In this document: positions 16,150 to 26,704 of the stretch, in pieces
Layout: each line of letters opens with the position of its first letter
Numbering within the stretch: position 1 is the stretch's first letter
NCBI RefSeq assembly: GCF_022846255.1
Contig: NZ_AP025682.1
Source of the DNA: Escherichia coli
GTDB lineage: Bacteria > Pseudomonadota > Gammaproteobacteria > Enterobacterales > Enterobacteriaceae
Length of the DNA: 64,000 nt
Direction: 5' to 3' (one strand)
Program-made: the position numbers and the translations under genes
The notes under the pieces: model-generated
What the model saw: the letters and a program-made list of their open reading frames with translations, nothing else
Database searches by the model: none
Told to the model about the DNA's origin: nothing

Positions 16150-18159
16150 TTGAGAAATGGAGAGAGGATAATGAACGCTGAAACTATTAAAGATTTCCTC
16201 GTCTCGCTTGGCTTCAGTGTGGATGATGCAGGAGCGAAAAAGTTCGGTTCTGTCCTCGCCGGTACAACTGCAAATGTCATCAAAATGGGGCTGGCCGTTG
16301 AAGGAGCCGCGCTGTCCGTGGTGGCCTTCACGGCTAAGATCGCCTCCGGTCTGGATAATCTTTACTGGGCGTCACAGCGCACTGGAGCGACAGTCCAGGG
16401 AATTCAGTCTATTGGCTATGCGGTTTCGCAGGTTGGCGGCAGCGTGGACGCTGCGCGATCTTCTCTGGAAAGCCTCTCCCGGTTTATTCGTAATAATCCC
16501 GGTGCAGAGGGATTTCTGAATCGCCTGGGGGTACAGACACGGGATGCCAGCGGTAACATGCGTGACATGGCCGCTATTTTTACAGGTGTAGGCCAGAAGC
16601 TCAGCGGCATGCCGTATTACCGGGCTAACCAGTATGCGCAGATGCTGGGCATTGACGAAAATACCCTTATGGCGATGCGTCGGGGTGTGGGTGGTTTCTC
16701 CGGGCAGTACAGCGCAATGGCGAAAGCTATCGGCTTCAATGCTGACGAGGCGGCCAGAAGCTCCAACAAATTTATGACCTCCCTGCGTGAGTTTAGCGCG
16801 ATGGCAGGCATGGCCCGTGACAAAATCGGCTCTAATCTTGCGGGTGGACTTGCGGGGTCGCTGGACACCCTGCGCCGCCATATCCTGGACAACTTCCCGC
16901 GCATCGAGCAGACTCTGACGAAAGCCATAAAAGGCATTCTGGCGCTCGGGGATATTATCGGGCGGCTGTTCTTCAGACTGATTGAGGGGACATCAGGCCT
17001 TATCACCTGGTGGCAATCGCTGGATAAGCAAACGCGGGAGTTGATCTCGCTGTTTGGCGCACTGACGATTGCGCTGCGCATTCTGAACAGTACGTTCTGG
17101 ATGTCGCCGATTGGCCTCATTACCGCGCTGGCGGCGGGGATTGCCCTCCTGTGGGAGGACTATCAGACCTGGAAGGAAGGCGGCGACAGCCTGATTGACT
17201 GGGGCAAGTGGAAACCGGAGGTCGATGCCGCGCTGAAGATGGTTCGTGACCTTAAAACGACCGTTAACGACCTGGCGAAAGCGCTGGCGAAACTACTCAA
17301 TATTGACCCCAAATCATGGTCCCTGAAGTGGGATTTCAGCAACTTCATCGACCAGATGGGCGAATTCAGCAAAATGCTGAACATGATCGCCGACCTGCTC
17401 AACGCTATCAAAGATGGCCGCTGGGCTGATGCCGTCAGCATCGGCAAACAGATACTTAATCAGGGCAGCGAAAATCCGTCAGCGATGCCGATGGTTACAG
17501 ACAGCGCTAACAGTACTGCCGACTGGATTAAAGAGCACTGGGGATTCGATCCCCGCAGTGTGGGCCGAACGGTACGCGGCTGGTTTGGTGATGATGAGCC
17601 GGAACAACATGCACAGGCTACGAAACGAGGAGAACGGAATAACAATCCGGGAAACCTTAATTTTGCTGGTCAGGCGGGGGCTTCTCTTGAACGCCCGGGC
17701 GGGCGATTTGCCAGATTCGAAACTGCCTTTGATGGATTACGGGCTCTTGCTCGTCAGTTAATGTTGTACGCCGGACGTGGAATAAACAGCGTGGAGAAAA
17801 TTATCTCTACCTGGGCGCCTGCGTCTGATAATAACAACACAACTGCGTATATCAGGGCTGTATCGCAACGACTGGGAGTGGATCCCCGGGCTGCCCTGAA
17901 TATGAGCGATCCGCAAACCATGTCAGCATTGATGAGCAGCATTATCCAGCATGAAAATGGAAGAAATATCTATTCTCAAGAGCTGATTAATAAGGCTGCC
18001 GTGGCGGGAATTAGTGGCAAAGTGACAGAGGTTAACCAGCAAAATACCTACCACATTTACGGTGGCGGAGATCCGCACGTTGTCGGTAATGAGGTTGCAC
18101 GTCGGCAACAGTCTGCAAATGCTCAGGTCATGCGAAGTAATCAGGTGAGGGTGAGTTAG
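16150..18159 (+). CDS. Tail tape-measure protein
   Basis: 669 aa, helical/Gly-Ala-rich N-terminal half; likely true start is ATG 16171 (GAGAGAGGA SD); the ORF track starts at TTG 16150. Confidence 0.7.
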   Translation: MRNGERIMNAETIKDFLVSLGFSVDDAGAKKFGSVLAGTTANVIKMGLAVEGAALSVVAFTAKIASGLDNLYWASQRTGATVQGIQSIGYAVSQVGGSVDAARSSLESLSRFIRNNPGAEGFLNRLGVQTRDASGNMRDMAAIFTGVGQKLSGMPYYRANQYAQMLGIDENTLMAMRRGVGGFSGQYSAMAKAIGFNADEAARSSNKFMTSLREFSAMAGMARDKIGSNLAGGLAGSLDTLRRHILDNFPRIEQTLTKAIKGILALGDIIGRLFFRLIEGTSGLITWWQSLDKQTRELISLFGALTIALRILNSTFWMSPIGLITALAAGIALLWEDYQTWKEGGDSLIDWGKWKPEVDAALKMVRDLKTTVNDLAKALAKLLNIDPKSWSLKWDFSNFIDQMGEFSKMLNMIADLLNAIKDGRWADAVSIGKQILNQGSENPSAMPMVTDSANSTADWIKEHWGFDPRSVGRTVRGWFGDDEPEQHAQATKRGERNNNPGNLNFAGQAGASLERPGGRFARFETAFDGLRALARQLMLYAGRGINSVEKIISTWAPASDNNNTTAYIRAVSQRLGVDPRAALNMSDPQTMSALMSSIIQHENGRNIYSQELINKAAVAGISGKVTEVNQQNTYHIYGGGDPHVVGNEVARRQQSANAQVMRSNQVRVS

Positions 18160-19050: not shown

Positions 19051-20112
19051 ATGTCACAGAACTGGATGAGACATTTCGAGCTGCAGCTTGTGGACGGGAA
19101 CGGTCAGGGAATTGAGCTAAGTGATTTCAAAGTCACCTTTACGATCGACTGGTTCAACATCAGCAGCGCGTCCCGGGTAGGGACTATCAAAATTTATAAC
19201 CTTTCGGCAGATACTGTGAACCGAATTACCGGGCAGGAGTTTTCGAAAGTGCGTCTGATTGCGGGTTACGACGGTATCGCGCCGGAGGTGTCGGCAAGCG
19301 ACGTCGGGACAGTGCGGGAAGTTGACGCGGCGGACGTGGGCCAGAGTGATGGTCGCAACTACGGACTGATTTTCAGCGGTGAAATTCGCTACTCGGTCAC
19401 AGGAAAAGACAGTCCGGTTGATTCCTACGTCCTGATTCAGGCAGCAGATACTGATCTGGCTTTTGCCACCAGTATAACCTCACAGACGCTGGCTGCCGGT
19501 TACACGGTCGCTGATGTGAACCGTGCGCTGATGAAAGACTTCGAAGCCAAAGGTGTGACCGAAGGCCTGACGCCTGAAATGCCTGCTACTGTATTCCCCC
19601 GGGGGCGGGTGCTCTTTGGCATGACGCGGCATCTAATGGATAACGTAGCCGGGCAATGTGGCGCAACATGGCAATTCGTGGACGGTCAGCGCCAGATGGT
19701 GGCGACTAATGAATATGTTCACGAAGCGATTGTGCTCAACAGTGCTACCGGGCTTATTGGCATGCCGCAGCAGACCATCGGCAACGGCGTAAACGTCCGC
19801 GCTCTTATTAATCCGAACATCCGGGTTAACGGGCTCATTCAGCTGGATCAGGCTTCCGTCTATCGTACCGCGTTGTCGAACAACGATATTGCGATGGCTG
19901 GTGGTCAGATCACCGACCAGAACACGGACGGAAATATCACGCTCAGCGGCACCACATCGCAGCCTGCCAGCATCGCAACGGATGGAGTTTATATTGTGCG
20001 CGGGATTATGTACAGTGGCGATACAAGGGGCCAGGCGTGGTACATGGATATGATGTGCGAAGCGCGTGGCGCGGCGGATCTGTATACGCAATCGGCTTTG
20101 CAAAGGGGATGA
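19051..20112 (+). CDS. Putative baseplate hub protein (Mu gp44 / P2 gpD-like by position)
   Basis: 353 aa; directly upstream of baseplate spike, gp46-, J- and gp48-like genes. Confidence 0.4.
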   Translation: MSQNWMRHFELQLVDGNGQGIELSDFKVTFTIDWFNISSASRVGTIKIYNLSADTVNRITGQEFSKVRLIAGYDGIAPEVSASDVGTVREVDAADVGQSDGRNYGLIFSGEIRYSVTGKDSPVDSYVLIQAADTDLAFATSITSQTLAAGYTVADVNRALMKDFEAKGVTEGLTPEMPATVFPRGRVLFGMTRHLMDNVAGQCGATWQFVDGQRQMVATNEYVHEAIVLNSATGLIGMPQQTIGNGVNVRALINPNIRVNGLIQLDQASVYRTALSNNDIAMAGGQITDQNTDGNITLSGTTSQPASIATDGVYIVRGIMYSGDTRGQAWYMDMMCEARGAADLYTQSALQRG

Positions 20113-20115
20113 GCA

Positions 20116-20457
20116 ATGAGGGGTATTATTTTTCTGTTAGCTGTCTTTTCTGCGTGCAGCGCGTGGGCGGATGGCTTCACGGTTAAATGCGGTGGCTACA
20201 CTATGGTTGCAAACCAGGGCGAGTTATCGACAATCAACGGTGAAAGAGTTACCTCTCAAAAAATCACCGAACTGGGTACCAATGGTTTGAAAGTAGACAT
20301 GGGGCTTATGCCTGCCAAAGACGGTAACAACTACGGCTTTGAATACATTCGTCGCCCTGGTACCGAAACGCGATTCCTGAATGTCCAACTGCTGCAGAAC
20401 AGCATGGATGCGCCGAAAATCATCGGTTCCTTTCCATGCAAAAAGATTGTTGATTAA
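20116..20457 (+). CDS. Small exported protein (signal peptide; possible lipoprotein); moron inserted in the baseplate operon
   Basis: 113 aa; N-terminus MRGIIFLLAVFSACSAWADG (signal peptide; AWA-DG SPI site or FSAC lipobox-like); two later Cys; AGGGGA SD. Confidence 0.55.
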   Translation: MRGIIFLLAVFSACSAWADGFTVKCGGYTMVANQGELSTINGERVTSQKITELGTNGLKVDMGLMPAKDGNNYGFEYIRRPGTETRFLNVQLLQNSMDAPKIIGSFPCKKIVD

Positions 20458-20474
20458 TCACTCGTAATTATAAT
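20447..20474 (+). promoter_or_regulatory. Putative sigma70 promoter for the small membrane-protein gene
   Basis: -35 TTGTTG (20447-20452), 16-nt spacer, -10 TATAAT (20469-20474), about 36 nt upstream of the ATG at 20511. Confidence 0.4.
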
Positions 20475-20510
20475 GTGGTACTTCTACTTTCACGATAAGG
20501 AATTTGTCGC

Positions 20511-20750
20511 ATGTTCGGATTTGATAAATTAATAACTCCAAAAATCATCAACGTTCTGTATGGCATCACAATGTTACTTCTGGTTGTTGCCGCCATTATA
20601 ACGTTTGTTAATGGGAAGGCTGCTGGCGCTTTAGTGCTTTTGTTATGTGCTGTATTTTGCCGAATATTCTTTGAGTGCATCATGGTTTCATTTAAAAACA
20701 ATGAGTATCTTCGCCGAATAGCTGAAGCGTTAGAAGCAAACAAGCAGTAA
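20511..20750 (+). CDS. Small membrane protein (two predicted TM helices); moron
   Basis: 79 aa; two hydrophobic helices (ITMLLLVVAAIITFV, ALVLLLCAVFCRIFFECIMV); AAGGA SD; followed by a strong terminator. Confidence 0.55.
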   Translation: MFGFDKLITPKIINVLYGITMLLLVVAAIITFVNGKAAGALVLLLCAVFCRIFFECIMVSFKNNEYLRRIAEALEANKQ

Positions 20751-20768
20751 TGAAACTTCAATAATGAA

Positions 20769-20790
20769 CCCGCCACCCGGCGGGTTTTTT
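20769..20790 (+). terminator. Rho-independent terminator
   Basis: CCCGCC-ACCC-GGCGGG hairpin followed by T6. Confidence 0.6.
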
Positions 20791-20809
20791 GCTTTCTGGA
20801 GCCTACTAA

Positions 20810-21562
20810 ATGGCAGTATCTGACCAGACCCGCAGCGGCGACCTTGCCGAAACATTCAAATCTGAACGGGAAACAACAAAGAACCAGATCCGTGTCGCCT
20901 TGCCTGGCATTGTTCAGTCATTCGATCCCGACGCGGTGACGGCGGTTGTGCAGCCAGCTATCCGTTCGGTTGAAAAGGATAACGACGGTAACCGCATTAC
21001 CAAAAATTACCCGTTGCTGGTGGATGTGCCAGTGGTATTTCCGCGCGGCGGAGGCTGTACGTTGACTTTTCCGGTTAAAGCCGGGGATGAGTGTCTTGTC
21101 GTTTTTGCCGATCGTTGTATTGATTTCTGGTGGCAGAGCGGTGGGATACAGGAGCCGGTCGATGACAGAATGCATGATTTATCGGATGCGTTTTGTATTG
21201 CCGGTCCCCAGTCGCAGGCGAGGAAGATTAGCGGTATTAATACCAGTGCCACACAGTTGCGTAGTGACGACGGCAGCACCTATTTTGAGCTTAATCCTGA
21301 TACCCGGAAAATTAAAATTGTCGCCCCGGGTGGTCTTGATGTGGTTGCCCCTCTGGCTGATTTTTCTGAGAAAGTAACCATTCATGGCCTATTAACCTGG
21401 ATGGGGGGCATGGTGGGGTCTGTTGTTTCTGGTGTGGCTTCAAAAATCACTGGTGCTGTTGAGTTCTTGGGGAGCGTTAAGGCTAACGGCAAGCCAATCG
21501 ATGATACGCACACTCATGGCGGTGTTCAGCGCGGTGGAAGCAATACCGATGGGGTAAACTGA
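20810..21562 (+). CDS. Putative baseplate spike protein (gpV / Mu gp45-like)
   Basis: 250 aa; C-terminal THTHGG motif; position before gp46/J-like genes. Confidence 0.45.
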   Translation: MAVSDQTRSGDLAETFKSERETTKNQIRVALPGIVQSFDPDAVTAVVQPAIRSVEKDNDGNRITKNYPLLVDVPVVFPRGGGCTLTFPVKAGDECLVVFADRCIDFWWQSGGIQEPVDDRMHDLSDAFCIAGPQSQARKISGINTSATQLRSDDGSTYFELNPDTRKIKIVAPGGLDVVAPLADFSEKVTIHGLLTWMGGMVGSVVSGVASKITGAVEFLGSVKANGKPIDDTHTHGGVQRGGSNTDGVN

Positions 21563-23791: not shown

Positions 23792-24609
23792 TGGCGAAAA
23801 ATGACTTTAAAGCGTTTGCAACGGATCGAAATGCCAATGTTATATCGCAGGAGGAATGGGAAGCGTTGCCCGCGCTTGTATCCGGATTTACAGCAGGGAA
23901 AGCCTCCAGTGCGCAAGTCAATAAGGTTATTCGGCAGGCCAGCTTTATTGCTGCAGCTCTGGCCCAGTTTGTAAGTGATAAAACGCAACGGGATGTGCTT
24001 GATAATGGTGATCTGCCCGGTTTTGTTGAATTGCTGGGATCGGGGTTTGCTGTTGAATACCTGAGCCGCAAGAATCCGTTTGGTGATATCAAATCGGATG
24101 GCACGGTGAAAACGGCTCTCGAAAACCTTGGTTTGGGAGAAGGCTCTGCATTACCTGTTGGTGTGCCTGTTCCGTGGCCCTCCGCAACCCCGCCAACGGG
24201 CTGGCTGAAATGCAACGGCGCTGCCTTTGATAAGGTGAAATATTCCCATCTTGCTACAGCATATCCATCAGGGAAACTACCTGATCTCCGTGGTGAGTTT
24301 ATTCGTGGATGGGATGACGGGCGTGGTATTGATGCAGGACGTGCTTTATTGAGCATTCAGACTGGGATGCTGGAAAAACACCGCCATATTGTTGTTGCCA
24401 ACGATGGGTATGATTCAAAAGAGGAATGGGAACTGGCGACAATCTTCAGAAGAGCATATACGCAAGGCCGGGGGCTTGATGCTGCCGATGCCGGAGGAAC
24501 TCTGATTCCATCACCAACGCTACATACACGAGGGAGTATTGGTAACACAGGTGGGAGCGAAACCCGTCCACGAAATATTGCATTTAACTATATCGTGAGA
24601 GCTGCATAA
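23791..24609 (+). CDS. Tail fibre protein: constant N-terminal part fused to variable C-terminus in the current orientation of the invertible segment
   Basis: C-terminal collar-like motif [16 protein letters not shown]; gene spans the left crossover site at 24116-24141; likely start ATG 23791 (the ORF track's ATG 23773 is in frame). Confidence 0.7.
24116..24141. repeat. Left crossover site of the invertible segment (hix/gix-like 26-bp site)
   Basis: CTCTCGAAAACC-TT-GGTTTGGGAGAA; its inner half-site is a perfect inverted repeat of 26069-26080. Confidence 0.65.
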
Positions 24610-25211
24610 TGGATAAAGCCGTATTAAATAGCGAACTTATTGCCACGAAGGCGGGGAATATTACCGTCTATAACTATGATGGTGAAACACGGGAATATAT
24701 TTCCACTTCAAATGAATATCTTGCCGTTGGTGTCGGTATCCCGGCATATTCCTGTTTAGATGCTCCTGGCACATATAAGGCTGGTTATGCAATCTGCCGT
24801 TCAGTAGATTTAAACTCATGGGAATATATGCCAGACCATCGCGGTGAAATTATCTATAGCACCGAAACAGGAGAAGCAAAAGAAATCACAGCTCCGGGTG
24901 ATTACCCTGAAAATACAACCACTATCGTCCCGTTAACGCCATATGATAAATGGGATGGTGAGAAATGGGTGACAGATTCTGAGGCACAACACGGTGCCGC
25001 AGTAGAAGCGGCAGAAGCACAGCGCCAGTCACTGATTGATGCAGCAATGGCTTCCATCGGTCTGATTCAGCTGAAATTACAGGCCGGACGGAAGCTGATG
25101 CAGGCAGAAACAACCCGGCTTAACGCTGTGCTGGATTACATTGACGCGGTGACGGCAACAAATACCAGCACAGCGCCGGATGTCATCTGGCCTGAACTGC
25201 CGGAGGCGTAG
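24609..25211 (+). CDS. Tail fibre assembly protein (U-like)
   Basis: 200 aa; ATGA-coupled to tail-fibre stop. Confidence 0.7.
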   Translation: MDKAVLNSELIATKAGNITVYNYDGETREYISTSNEYLAVGVGIPAYSCLDAPGTYKAGYAICRSVDLNSWEYMPDHRGEIIYSTETGEAKEITAPGDYPENTTTIVPLTPYDKWDGEKWVTDSEAQHGAAVEAAEAQRQSLIDAAMASIGLIQLKLQAGRKLMQAETTRLNAVLDYIDAVTATNTSTAPDVIWPELPEA

Positions 25212-25626
25212 GCCATTCAATATCTGGCGCACAGGAAGTATCGACCAGTTCCAGTGCGTCCAGATAATCCAGCCATAAATTATATTGCTCCAGCTCGTTA
25301 CCTTTCAGACGACCAATAGCAGCTTTGCCAGGCCACTGATGGGTATTGATGTAAGTATTGGCTTCTGAAACCAAAGATATTTTTTTCATTTCAGCCATCA
25401 ACACCTCATCCTCTTTTGAAGGCGGTGGGGAATTAATCCATATTGGCCGTCCTGAACTGTCAGCGCCAATTTCTTTCCCTTCTGGATGCAGCCCAAGAAA
25501 TTGCTCATATGTTTCTCGGGTAATTTCAATAACATCATCTGGAAGCGTTCCCGCATCCTCATATTCTGGAAACAATTCTTGTAGATAAAAACTTTTACTT
25601 CCGGGTGAAAAGAATACTGAGTTCAT
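25183..25626 (-). CDS. Alternative tail fibre assembly protein (U'-like)
   Basis: 147 aa on the opposite strand inside the invertible segment; 3' end converges with tfa. Confidence 0.65.
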   Translation of the reverse strand: MNSVFFSPGSKSFYLQELFPEYEDAGTLPDDVIEITRETYEQFLGLHPEGKEIGADSSGRPIWINSPPPSKEDEVLMAEMKKISLVSEANTYINTHQWPGKAAIGRLKGNELEQYNLWLDYLDALELVDTSCAPDIEWPTPPAVQAR

Positions 25627-25628
25627 TA

Positions 25629-26080
25629 TTACCGTCCAATGATTAACGCTGAGACGCTGGTATCTGAAGGAAAGGCTGCATTCAGTGGTTTGTCGACTTT
25701 GAACACAATCGTATTATTCCCCCTGACAGCGGCAAAAGAACAAACCGCAGTCGCGTATGAACCTGTAATATTACTGGATACACCACCATAAGCTGTTGTT
25801 GATACCAGAGGGATAACGCCCAGCACCTTATTAGGAAATACAAAGGGCAATGTGGCTGTGGCAATATAAGACTTATTAGAGCCTGTGATGGCATAAGCAT
25901 TATCAGTCATTCCATTCATCGCCACCGGGCCGCTTATACTTACAGTAACCATCTGAATGATTAGCCCGTCAGGTTGACGAATCACAAAATTTCCATTGCC
26001 ACCAGTAACCGTCCAGAAAGACATATCAGGGATTTGGTTTTCCCCGTTGCCCACATTCCGTTTTGCCGCTTCTCCCAAAC
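25629..26080 (-). CDS. Alternative tail-fibre variable C-terminal segment (Sv'-like); no own start, expressed only after inversion
   Basis: Open frame runs from the right crossover site; encodes GLGE at the site, matching LGLGE at the left site in the expressed fibre. The ORF-track start at 26123 lies outside the segment. Confidence 0.6.
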
Positions 26081-26094
26081 CAACGTTTATGAAA
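26069..26094. repeat. Right crossover site of the invertible segment
   Basis: TTCTCCCAAACC-AA-CGTTTATGAAAA. Confidence 0.65.
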
Positions 26095-26149
26095 ATGCAG
26101 AAATAACGAGCAAATGGCATCATTCCTGCTTTTGTCAGGGAGATCTACC

Positions 26150-26704
26150 ATGCTTATTGGCTATGTACGCGTATCAACAAATGACCAGAATACCGATCTA
26201 CAACGTAATGCGTTGAACTGTGCAGGATGCGAGCTGATTTTTGAAGACAAGATAAGCGGTACAAAGTCCGAAAGGCCGGGACTGAAAAAACTGCTCAGGA
26301 CATTATCGGCAGGTGACACTCTGGTTGTCTGGAAGCTGGATCGGCTGGGGCGTAGTATGCGGCATCTGGTCATTCTGGTTGAGGAGTTGCGCGAACGTGG
26401 CGTTAATTTTCGCAGCCTGACGGATGCTATTGATACCAGCACACCGATGGGGCGTTTTTTCTTTCATGTGATGGGGGCCCTGGCTGAAATGGAACGAGAA
26501 CTGATTGTTGAACGAACAAAAGCTGGACTGGAAGCTGCTCGCGCACAGGGACGAATTGGTGGACGTCGTCCCAAACTTACACCAGAACAATGGGCGCAGG
26601 CCGGGCGACTAATTGCATCAGGAGTTCCTCGCCAGAAGGTGGCGATCATTTATGATGTTGGCGTATCGACTTTGTATAAGAAGTTTCCGGTCGGAGATAA
26701 ATGA
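26150..26704 (+). CDS. pin: Serine-recombinase DNA invertase (Pin/Gin/Hin family)
   Basis: 184 aa from MLIGYVRVSTNDQNTDLQRNAL; catalytic Ser in VRVSTNDQ; C-terminal HTH; AGGGAG SD; adjacent to the invertible segment. Confidence 0.85.
   Translation: MLIGYVRVSTNDQNTDLQRNALNCAGCELIFEDKISGTKSERPGLKKLLRTLSAGDTLVVWKLDRLGRSMRHLVILVEELRERGVNFRSLTDAIDTSTPMGRFFFHVMGALAEMERELIVERTKAGLEAARAQGRIGGRRPKLTPEQWAQAGRLIASGVPRQKVAIIYDVGVSTLYKKFPVGDK

Follow-up and report, generated by a model that had tools for sequence, protein, structure and literature searches.

What do two small genes do between the baseplate hub gene and the spike gene of a prophage, and do they belong together? The question is raised by a stretch of 64,000 nucleotides of Escherichia coli (contig NZ_AP025682.1; hereafter the window), in which the hub gene is followed by a gene for a 113-residue exported protein (gene A; 20116–20457, + strand), then by a gene for a 79-residue DUF4282 protein with two predicted transmembrane helices (gene B; 20511–20750, + strand), and then by the spike gene. 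An initial annotation, made from the sequence alone, had pointed out both open reading frames (ORFs), and they stand: judged by sequence conservation, A and B are real genes in conserved families. It had also described them as one self-contained two-gene insert, and this did not hold, as A and B assort independently among related prophages. The locus is a two-slot accessory region of the baseplate operon with swappable cargo; this account, taken together with the roles proposed below for A and B, is on balance probable. Slot 1 lies directly past the hub, translationally coupled to it and nearly always occupied by A; slot 2 is a hypervariable cargo site between the conserved 3′ end of A and a conserved terminator, and here holds B.

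The main comparison was made on 80 loci from IMG/VR (L030–L109) whose hub is at least 96% identical to that of the window; the 78 that also contain the spike gene were counted, and all fractions of 78 given here refer to them. The hub–spike interval ranges in length from 399 to 1861 bp. A follows the hub directly in 70/78 loci, with its start 3–9 nt past the hub stop codon. B is carried by 12/78 loci with near-identical hubs; the second position is otherwise filled by one of at least 21 further gene sets or left empty (3/78 loci), making at least 22 architectures. The eight loci without A have in its place an unrelated 241-residue lipoprotein (C13; L068, L071, L088 and L100) or a 176-residue secreted protein (C12; L064, L083, L087 and L092), neither of which has a PHROG match, and the first gene past the hub encodes an exported protein in 78/78 loci. 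The 241-residue lipoprotein is also present in L010 (619–1344), and is named 'HMG-box domain-containing protein' in RefSeq. In the loci lacking A the hub is still at least 96% identical and in most of them the spike is near-identical too; the C-terminal region of the tape-measure protein is 98–99% identical to that of the window in 7/8, and was undetected in the remaining one, where it likely lies beyond the fetched flank.

Within gene A, the last three to four residues track the cargo, being KIVD in 12/12 loci with B and KVAG in 12/13 of those with the commonest gene pair (see below), whereas cargo type is independent of which of six N-terminal A alleles is present. Since the cargo follows the last residues of A and not the N-terminal allele, the left junction of the cassette is placed, on this sequence pattern, at the very end of gene A. 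By the same loci, A and B are separate, independently assorting modules and not one insert. The phage-moron reading of the pair (morons as defined in PMC3594210) accordingly divides. For B it stands: presence in only 12/78 close relatives, a base composition unlike that of the neighbours (GC content 0.37 over B, as against 0.55 over the hub and 0.52 over the spike), a ribosome-binding site of its own, a promoter-like site, slot-mates that are Sie-like, toxin or HEPN-like, and moron positions elsewhere (see below). For A, present in 70/78 loci, it fails. The initial annotation had taken a fixed position in all related tails to speak against a superinfection-exclusion role, and for A such a position was largely found, past the hub in close and in distant relatives.

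The right junction is an intrinsic terminator (20766–20793, + strand), formed by a hairpin (20766–20787) with a 9-bp GC-rich stem and a 4-nt loop, followed by a T-run (−16.4 kcal/mol, z −3.76); of the terminators called over the 12 kb scanned, it ranked first. It had been described as a strong terminator of B, and strong it is, but it is not B's own. When the last 75 nt of the hub–spike interval were compared across L030–L109 (the terminator-bearing copy in the window being 20766–20801), a near-identical terminator (AACCCGCC, a variable 4-nt loop, GGCGGGTTTTTTGCTTTCTGGAGCC) was found just before the spike ribosome-binding site (GGAG, 20798–20801 in the window, directly past the terminator) in 76/78 loci, and it is kept whatever the cargo, including in loci without cargo and in loci without A. 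As the hairpin closes the slot in nearly all loci regardless of what the slot contains, its conservation identifies the terminator as a feature of the phage backbone and as the right junction of slot 2. Such a terminator, fixed in place midway through a late operon, was unexpected.

The commonest cargo of slot 2, in about 30/78 loci, is a 243–276-residue protein (phrog_22649 and relatives; weak TPR match) together with a 131–142-residue HEPN-like protein (phrog_5176; Pfam HEPN, 2.8e-3; PADLOC HEPN_IX, 3e-3; for example L047 498–1229 with L046 1229–1657, L036 and L064), a cassette that was not recognized as a defence system. A 190-residue protein with a YafO toxin occupies the slot in 9/78 loci. 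DUF2335 is also among the cargo, as is a 176–184-residue multi-pass membrane protein with an acidic 56-residue protein (L007 974–1528; L009; L080 364–918), the former with a weak PADLOC match to PycTM, a Pycsar membrane effector (9e-4). A single exported cargo protein of 245 residues (L107 366–1103) gave PHROG matches to phrog_13333 and to phrog_8545, 'superinfection exclusion Sie-like' (2.5e-15), together with a Pfam tRNA_anti-like match (OB-fold; 5.3e-16). A PADLOC search with A, B and 15 cargo proteins gave only the weak PycTM and HEPN_IX matches. The variability extends to finished genomes: the flanking genes occur in 352 of 5,426 complete E. coli genomes, and between them lie DUF4282, the YafO toxin pair, DUF2335 or various hypothetical proteins.

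Gene A begins with an ATG 3 nt past the hub stop codon, and its Shine-Dalgarno sequence, AAGGGGA (20103–20109), lies within the last codons of the hub gene; a consensus scan called no promoter upstream of A on its strand. From this layout, A is read as translationally coupled to the hub, and with it to the late operon. Its homologues, clustered at 90% identity, fall into 396 groups, every one from Enterobacteriaceae and none with a name, and no named family for A was found in PHROGs, Pfam, NCBIfam or PADLOC, phrog_3443 (E 1.4e-47; function unassigned) being the only match. The signal peptide announced by the initial annotation is borne out: it covers residues 1–18 (20116–20169), with predicted cleavage between AWA and DG. 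In alignments of 14 and then of 31 members, the sequence of the N-terminal 18–22 residues is free to vary, but a positive charge, a hydrophobic stretch and an Ala-x-Ala always follow one another there; among close members the −1 Ala never changes (alignment A1). The lipobox-like motif fared less well. FSAC does fit a permissive lipobox pattern, but that pattern only, and Cys14 is missing from most alleles (T2, T3, T5 and T6) and from distant members, allele T4 having LFSC. Because the varying N-termini always end in Ala-x-Ala and the Cys is mostly missing, the A family is assigned, from these alignments, to export through signal peptidase I; lipidation in addition could be conceived of solely for alleles T1, that of the window, and T4.

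The mature protein of 95 residues is strongly conserved, with the motifs CGxY, ING, SQK, DGNNYGF and FLNVQ (alignment A2) and with two invariant Cys residues, Cys25 and Cys108, near its two ends. An AlphaFold2 model built from the 31-sequence alignment (mean predicted local distance difference test score, pLDDT, 91.9) predicts an eight-stranded up-and-down β-barrel, in which the two Cys residues would lie in the first and last strands, adjacent to each other. Matches in AFDB50 are members of the same family, named 'Secreted protein', from Photorhabdus, Yersinia, Pectobacterium, Serratia, Pantoea and Erwinia, with one, 49% identical to A, that carries the UniProt name 'C-type lysozyme inhibitor domain' (see below). 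Four giant repeat proteins that matched the A profile (P0126, P0147, P0159 and P0162) were set aside, after their sequences had been read, as artefacts of repeats or of composition. When the interval was scanned with Rfam, a lone SNORD46 match appeared inside A (20277–20362, − strand; 25.1 bits, the gathering score being 40; E 0.006), which was taken as chance.

The association of A with the hub is old. Yersinia YP3, Salmonella SEN34, E. coli vB_EcoM-689R2 and Klebsiella Mulock all have an A homologue right past the hub, followed by a different second gene in each, and members only about 30% identical to A still follow the hub (L013, L110). In L017 a distant member is fused behind a lipoprotein domain (P0146, LSGC). 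On marine metagenome contigs (Tara and others; L113 371–709 and L114 234–572), where the hub is a clear homologue with 47% identity, the order is plug, A-like, hub, spike, with the A-like gene on the opposite side of the hub. Divergent members, about 24% identical to A, also occur outside prophages: one is chromosomal (L014 6001–6357), between cls/yciY and yciI/tonB, in the place of kch in E. coli K-12, and a second (L015 2651–2995) lies on a 6.6-kb Rep3/NikA plasmid-like contig, beside repeat-rich membrane-anchored proteins. Since they are found on a chromosome and a plasmid, the A family, as delimited by sequence, extends beyond phages. The neighbours on the plasmid-like contig were considered as a bacteriocin/immunity pair and this was dropped, as they gave no informative match. 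In Pseudomonas phage E217, a 177-residue ORF, gp42 (L029 7595–8128), likewise separates the hub, gp41, from the tail tip, gp43, and gp42 is absent from the proteins reported as built in the E217 virion structure; it has no signal peptide and is unrelated to A, and as a parallel to A the ORF between hub and tail tip of Pbunavirus (E217, Pa193), which goes unreported in the virion structures, says little.

Gene B matches PF14110, DUF4282, over residues 2–71 (model positions 2–85 of 86; E 6.8e-9) and phrog_12129 (8e-48); its homologues form 87 clusters across Enterobacterales, 86 of which have a precomputed PF14110 match. Its hydropathy profile shows two hydrophobic helices joined by a short loop, in agreement with the two-helix membrane protein foreseen by the initial annotation, and B is accordingly predicted to be an inner-membrane protein with two transmembrane helices. 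The charge distribution suggests that the invariant motifs FDKLITPKI, RxFFE and FKNNEYLRRI (alignment A7) are on the cytoplasmic side. B has its own Shine-Dalgarno sequence, AAGGAA (20497–20502). Close homologues lie directly past the tape-measure gene in Klebsiella siphovirus-type prophages, past the lysis cassette in a Pantoea prophage, and in Pectobacterium in the same hub–A–B–spike order as in the window; all four contexts examined are prophages, with B in moron positions beside tail or lysis genes, and in the other prophages each B homologue is then followed by a stable hairpin and a T-run. A 102-residue antisense ORF (20468–20776), which overlaps the conserved DUF4282 frame of B, is held to be spurious, an artefact of AT-rich sequence.

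A σ70-like promoter candidate for B (20447–20474, + strand), made up of TTGTTG (20447–20452), a 16-nt spacer and TATAAT (20469–20474), sits in the 53-nt gap before B, with its −35 hexamer overlapping the last codons of A (K-I-V-D-stop). The KIVD tail of A, which forms that hexamer, is specific to loci that carry B. TTGTTG-16-TATAAT is the sole TTGNNN-N16–18-TATAAT site in the window, where about 1.2 would be expected anywhere by chance. A promoter for B at this site, as proposed by the initial annotation, is plausible.

How might the two slots work? B would be transcribed alone in the lysogen, the backbone terminator keeping its transcript out of the spike gene, and late transcription, being antiterminated, would read through that terminator, as suggested by the lambdoid late-gene layout; cargo would be exchanged by homologous recombination within the two conserved anchors. 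At the inner membrane, B would block genome entry or otherwise exclude other phages in the manner of HK97 gp15, a role that we consider the likeliest for B, at somewhat less than even odds, from the analogy in position and kind. A would be made late, together with the baseplate proteins, and would act in the periplasm, binding either an envelope component or a component of the incoming tail tip and so limiting superinfection or wasteful re-adsorption. Being exported, made with baseplate proteins and replaceable by other exported proteins, A is taken to be an accessory periplasmic factor and not a part of the virion. An action against superinfection or re-adsorption is the function that we rank first for A, if only tentatively, with late egress and lysin inhibition as live rivals. 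By analogy, then, a role in superinfection exclusion or defence appears reasonable for B, and for A it is speculative. A target of the kind that A would need may be at hand: the C-terminal part (17620–18024) of the tape-measure gene (16150–18159, + strand) resembles, in phmmer searches against the Protein Data Bank (PDB), the 'Endolysin' 7q47 (1.7e-13) and Gp29 of 9vvp (2.2e-20), although Pfam gives no recognition of this region. As its tape-measure C-terminus is homologous to a solved endolysin, the tail, by this similarity, carries a muralytic-type domain, and it is thus conceivable that a periplasmic factor such as A is aimed at incoming tail tips.

Several observations weigh against these proposals. 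The consensus scan made no call for the promoter candidate of B, because its −35 hexamer matches only 3/6 consensus positions; nor did the leaders upstream of B homologues align between contexts. A lacks a promoter of its own and so may not be made in lysogens, which would be unusual for an exclusion factor. The A-like genes on a chromosome and on a plasmid imply that the function of the family need not concern phages, and in the IMG/VR loci neither the tape-measure lysin domain nor the spike clearly co-varied with the A alleles. Neither B nor A has a match in PADLOC, and no mention of DUF4282 was found in the searchable literature.

Other functions can be drawn for A from the same evidence. 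The initial annotation had likened A to the small exported proteins Cor (phi80, N15 and T1) and Llp (T5), which are likewise encoded beside tail genes, and this likeness could be developed into a single two-gene insert in which A, as a lipoprotein, makes the outer-membrane receptor of its own phage inaccessible, with the help of B. Lytic growth is the stage at which Llp and T1 Cor are made. The signal peptide of A with its FSAC, the LFSC of allele T4, the true lipoprotein fusion P0146 and the C13 lipoprotein that takes A's place in 4/78 loci would all suit such a role; against this, Cys14 is lost in T2, T3, T5, T6 and distant members while Ala-x-Ala is kept, no PHROG or Pfam match to the Cor/Llp families was found, A and B assort independently, and A, which is coupled to the late operon, shows conservation, unlike the variable receptor-binding tail fibres that determine receptor choice. 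We therefore regard the Cor/Llp likeness as not upheld, and the reading built on it as improbable indeed. That A is a cytoplasmic baseplate assembly factor or a minor virion protein, its N-terminus being no signal peptide, would agree with its fixed place beside the hub, which it has in some 90% of close relatives and also in distant ones; we hold it to be very improbable, given an N-terminus that varies yet retains the signal-peptide layout with Ala-x-Ala, two invariant Cys residues that, in the first and last strands of the model, would fit an extracytoplasmic disulfide, and the replacement of A by unrelated exported proteins in 8/78 loci whose hubs retain at least 96% identity and in most of which the further tail genes checked, for the tape-measure C-terminus and the spike, are near-identical.

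Another role for A would be that of a periplasmic inhibitor of peptidoglycan hydrolases, similar to PliC/MliC or to the spackle protein (Sp) of T4, and directed against the tape-measure lysin domain of a superinfecting sibling. The endolysin-like tape-measure C-terminus would supply a target for it, and MliC/PliC (PF09864) was pursued as a lead from the fold and from the UniProt name of the 49%-identical member: these inhibitors too are periplasmic, of about 90 residues, eight-stranded β-barrels with a Cys near each end, the barrel of A being that of the model. The lead was rejected as a homology, since Pfam MliC matches 0/31 members, hhalign of alignment A2 against alignment A5 gave a probability of 8.4% with only the leader aligned, and the inhibitory motifs SxSGAxY and YxxxTKG, visible in A5, are missing from A2. 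Spackle, which inhibits the tail-tip lysozyme gp5, is alike in concept, as a phage periplasmic protein that could act on an incoming tail tip, and the tail here does have a lysin domain; but A is a modelled β-barrel that would be made late, and no homology was found. T4 Sp is helical and made early. With, in addition, the tape-measure C-terminus kept 98–99% identical in loci lacking A (in the 7/8 where it was detected) and A alleles that do not track the lysin domain, inhibition of this kind seems fairly improbable. A late accessory to egress or lysis, which would spare progeny from loss on debris or tune envelope breakdown with no exclusion in lysogens, would account for the lack of an own promoter, for a start 3–9 nt past the hub stop or in ATGA overlap, and for the way in which A stays next to the hub even in deeply diverged phages, among them the marine relatives in which it lies on the hub's other side. 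It is nevertheless unlikely in our view: a complete cassette of holin, endolysin and Rz/Rz1 is encoded elsewhere in the same prophage, and A-like genes are found outside phages too. As for B, it could be a host-fitness membrane protein, active in stress or envelope homeostasis and with no anti-phage role. DUF4282 is a broad bacterial family without known function, PADLOC has no match for B, and many morons, such as Lom and Bor, benefit the host and are not defence genes (PMC3594210). However, the four examined contexts of close B homologues are all prophage moron positions, and other loci have Sie-like, toxin or HEPN-like genes in the slot that B occupies here; we thus take a purely host-directed function to be somewhat unlikely.

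The exclusion role preferred for B leans on gene 15 of HK97, the moron prototype, whose product gp15 is a small inner-membrane protein that is encoded in the tail operon and blocks genome entry (Juhala et al., 2000; Cumby et al., 2012; PMC3594210). B, too, is the gene of a predicted small inner-membrane protein within a tail operon, missing from close relatives and AT-rich, with a promoter-like site before it and a terminator after it, and its family, like that of gp15/YebO, is spread across Enterobacterales. It differs in that B belongs to DUF4282 and has no sequence relationship to gp15/YebO (YebO is absent from a Pfam scan of B, which lists DUF4282 and weak matches to YbhQ, DUF4231 and DUF6358) and in that its terminator is that of the phage backbone, common to all cargo types. 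For the slot as a whole, the closest parallels are the hotspots of P2-like prophages, old/tin and Z/fun, the latter downstream of a baseplate gene (Rousset et al., 2022, PMC9122126; bioRxiv 10.1101/2024.10.15.618418). There, as here, unrelated accessory or defence genes interchange at a fixed site between morphogenesis genes in near-identical phages; here, in contrast, the lineage combines a lambdoid backbone with a tail of Pam3/E217 type, the site lies between hub and spike in the late operon, bounded by an exported-protein gene and a terminator, and the cargo families are mostly absent from PADLOC. The region is thus a further example of a moron/defence hotspot, in a lineage and at a site different from the P2-like ones.

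No description of a hub–spike hotspot was found in the searchable literature, and the SEN34 paper is silent on the region. The P2-like prophage hotspots have already yielded new anti-phage systems. The hub–spike site belongs to a common prophage lineage, which about 6% of complete E. coli genomes carry and which extends to Klebsiella, Salmonella and Pectobacterium; the clear conserved anchors of the site allow the cargo to be collected systematically, and this cargo is mostly uncharacterized (DUF4282, the pairs of a 243-residue and a HEPN-like protein, the 184-residue membrane protein). The role of A, once solved, would reveal the periplasmic needs of a temperate myovirus at a late stage of infection. 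Two bolder readings, to which together we give only a modest chance, are that A represents a new family of phage periplasmic β-barrels that recognize the tail tip of a superinfecting sibling, in spackle-like self-exclusion or superinfection sensing, or that the slot between hub and spike is an unmined defence hotspot with a new system. In the former, A, made with the baseplate, may have the hub, the spike or the tape-measure lysin as its target, and would be tied to the hub from enteric to marine phages; in the latter, the commonest cargo, the 243–276-residue protein and its HEPN-like partner, may be a new anti-phage system.

The prophage in the window, a SEN34-like (Brunovirus-type) lambdoid myovirus, combines regulation and lysis genes of lambdoid kind with a contractile Pam3/E217-type tail, and its hub–spike interval is 100% identical to that of E. 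coli FDAARGOS_1059. The left flank of the interval is the baseplate hub gene (19051–20112, + strand; 353 residues), which matches phrog_196, 'baseplate hub' (E 5e-89), and has relatives with Pfam E217_GP41; among the tail genes of relatives, Pfam matches to Dit_like, Pam3_gp18, E217_GP41, Sheath_initiator and Baseplate_J were found. The right flank is the spike, or tail-tip, gene (20810–21562, + strand; 250 residues), named 'membrane-puncturing spike protein' in RefSeq, with a C-terminal HxH apex motif; it matches TIGR01644, phage_P2_V, at 1.2e-7, under the cut-off of that model, and its relatives carry the Pfam Apex domain. Further downstream, at about 24460–26610, tail-fibre and tail-fibre-assembly genes in opposite orientations lie beside a pinE-type site-specific recombinase (as read from L012 24349–26495), a stretch with the appearance of an invertible host-range segment; the prophage ends there, beside the host genes pphA and yebW.

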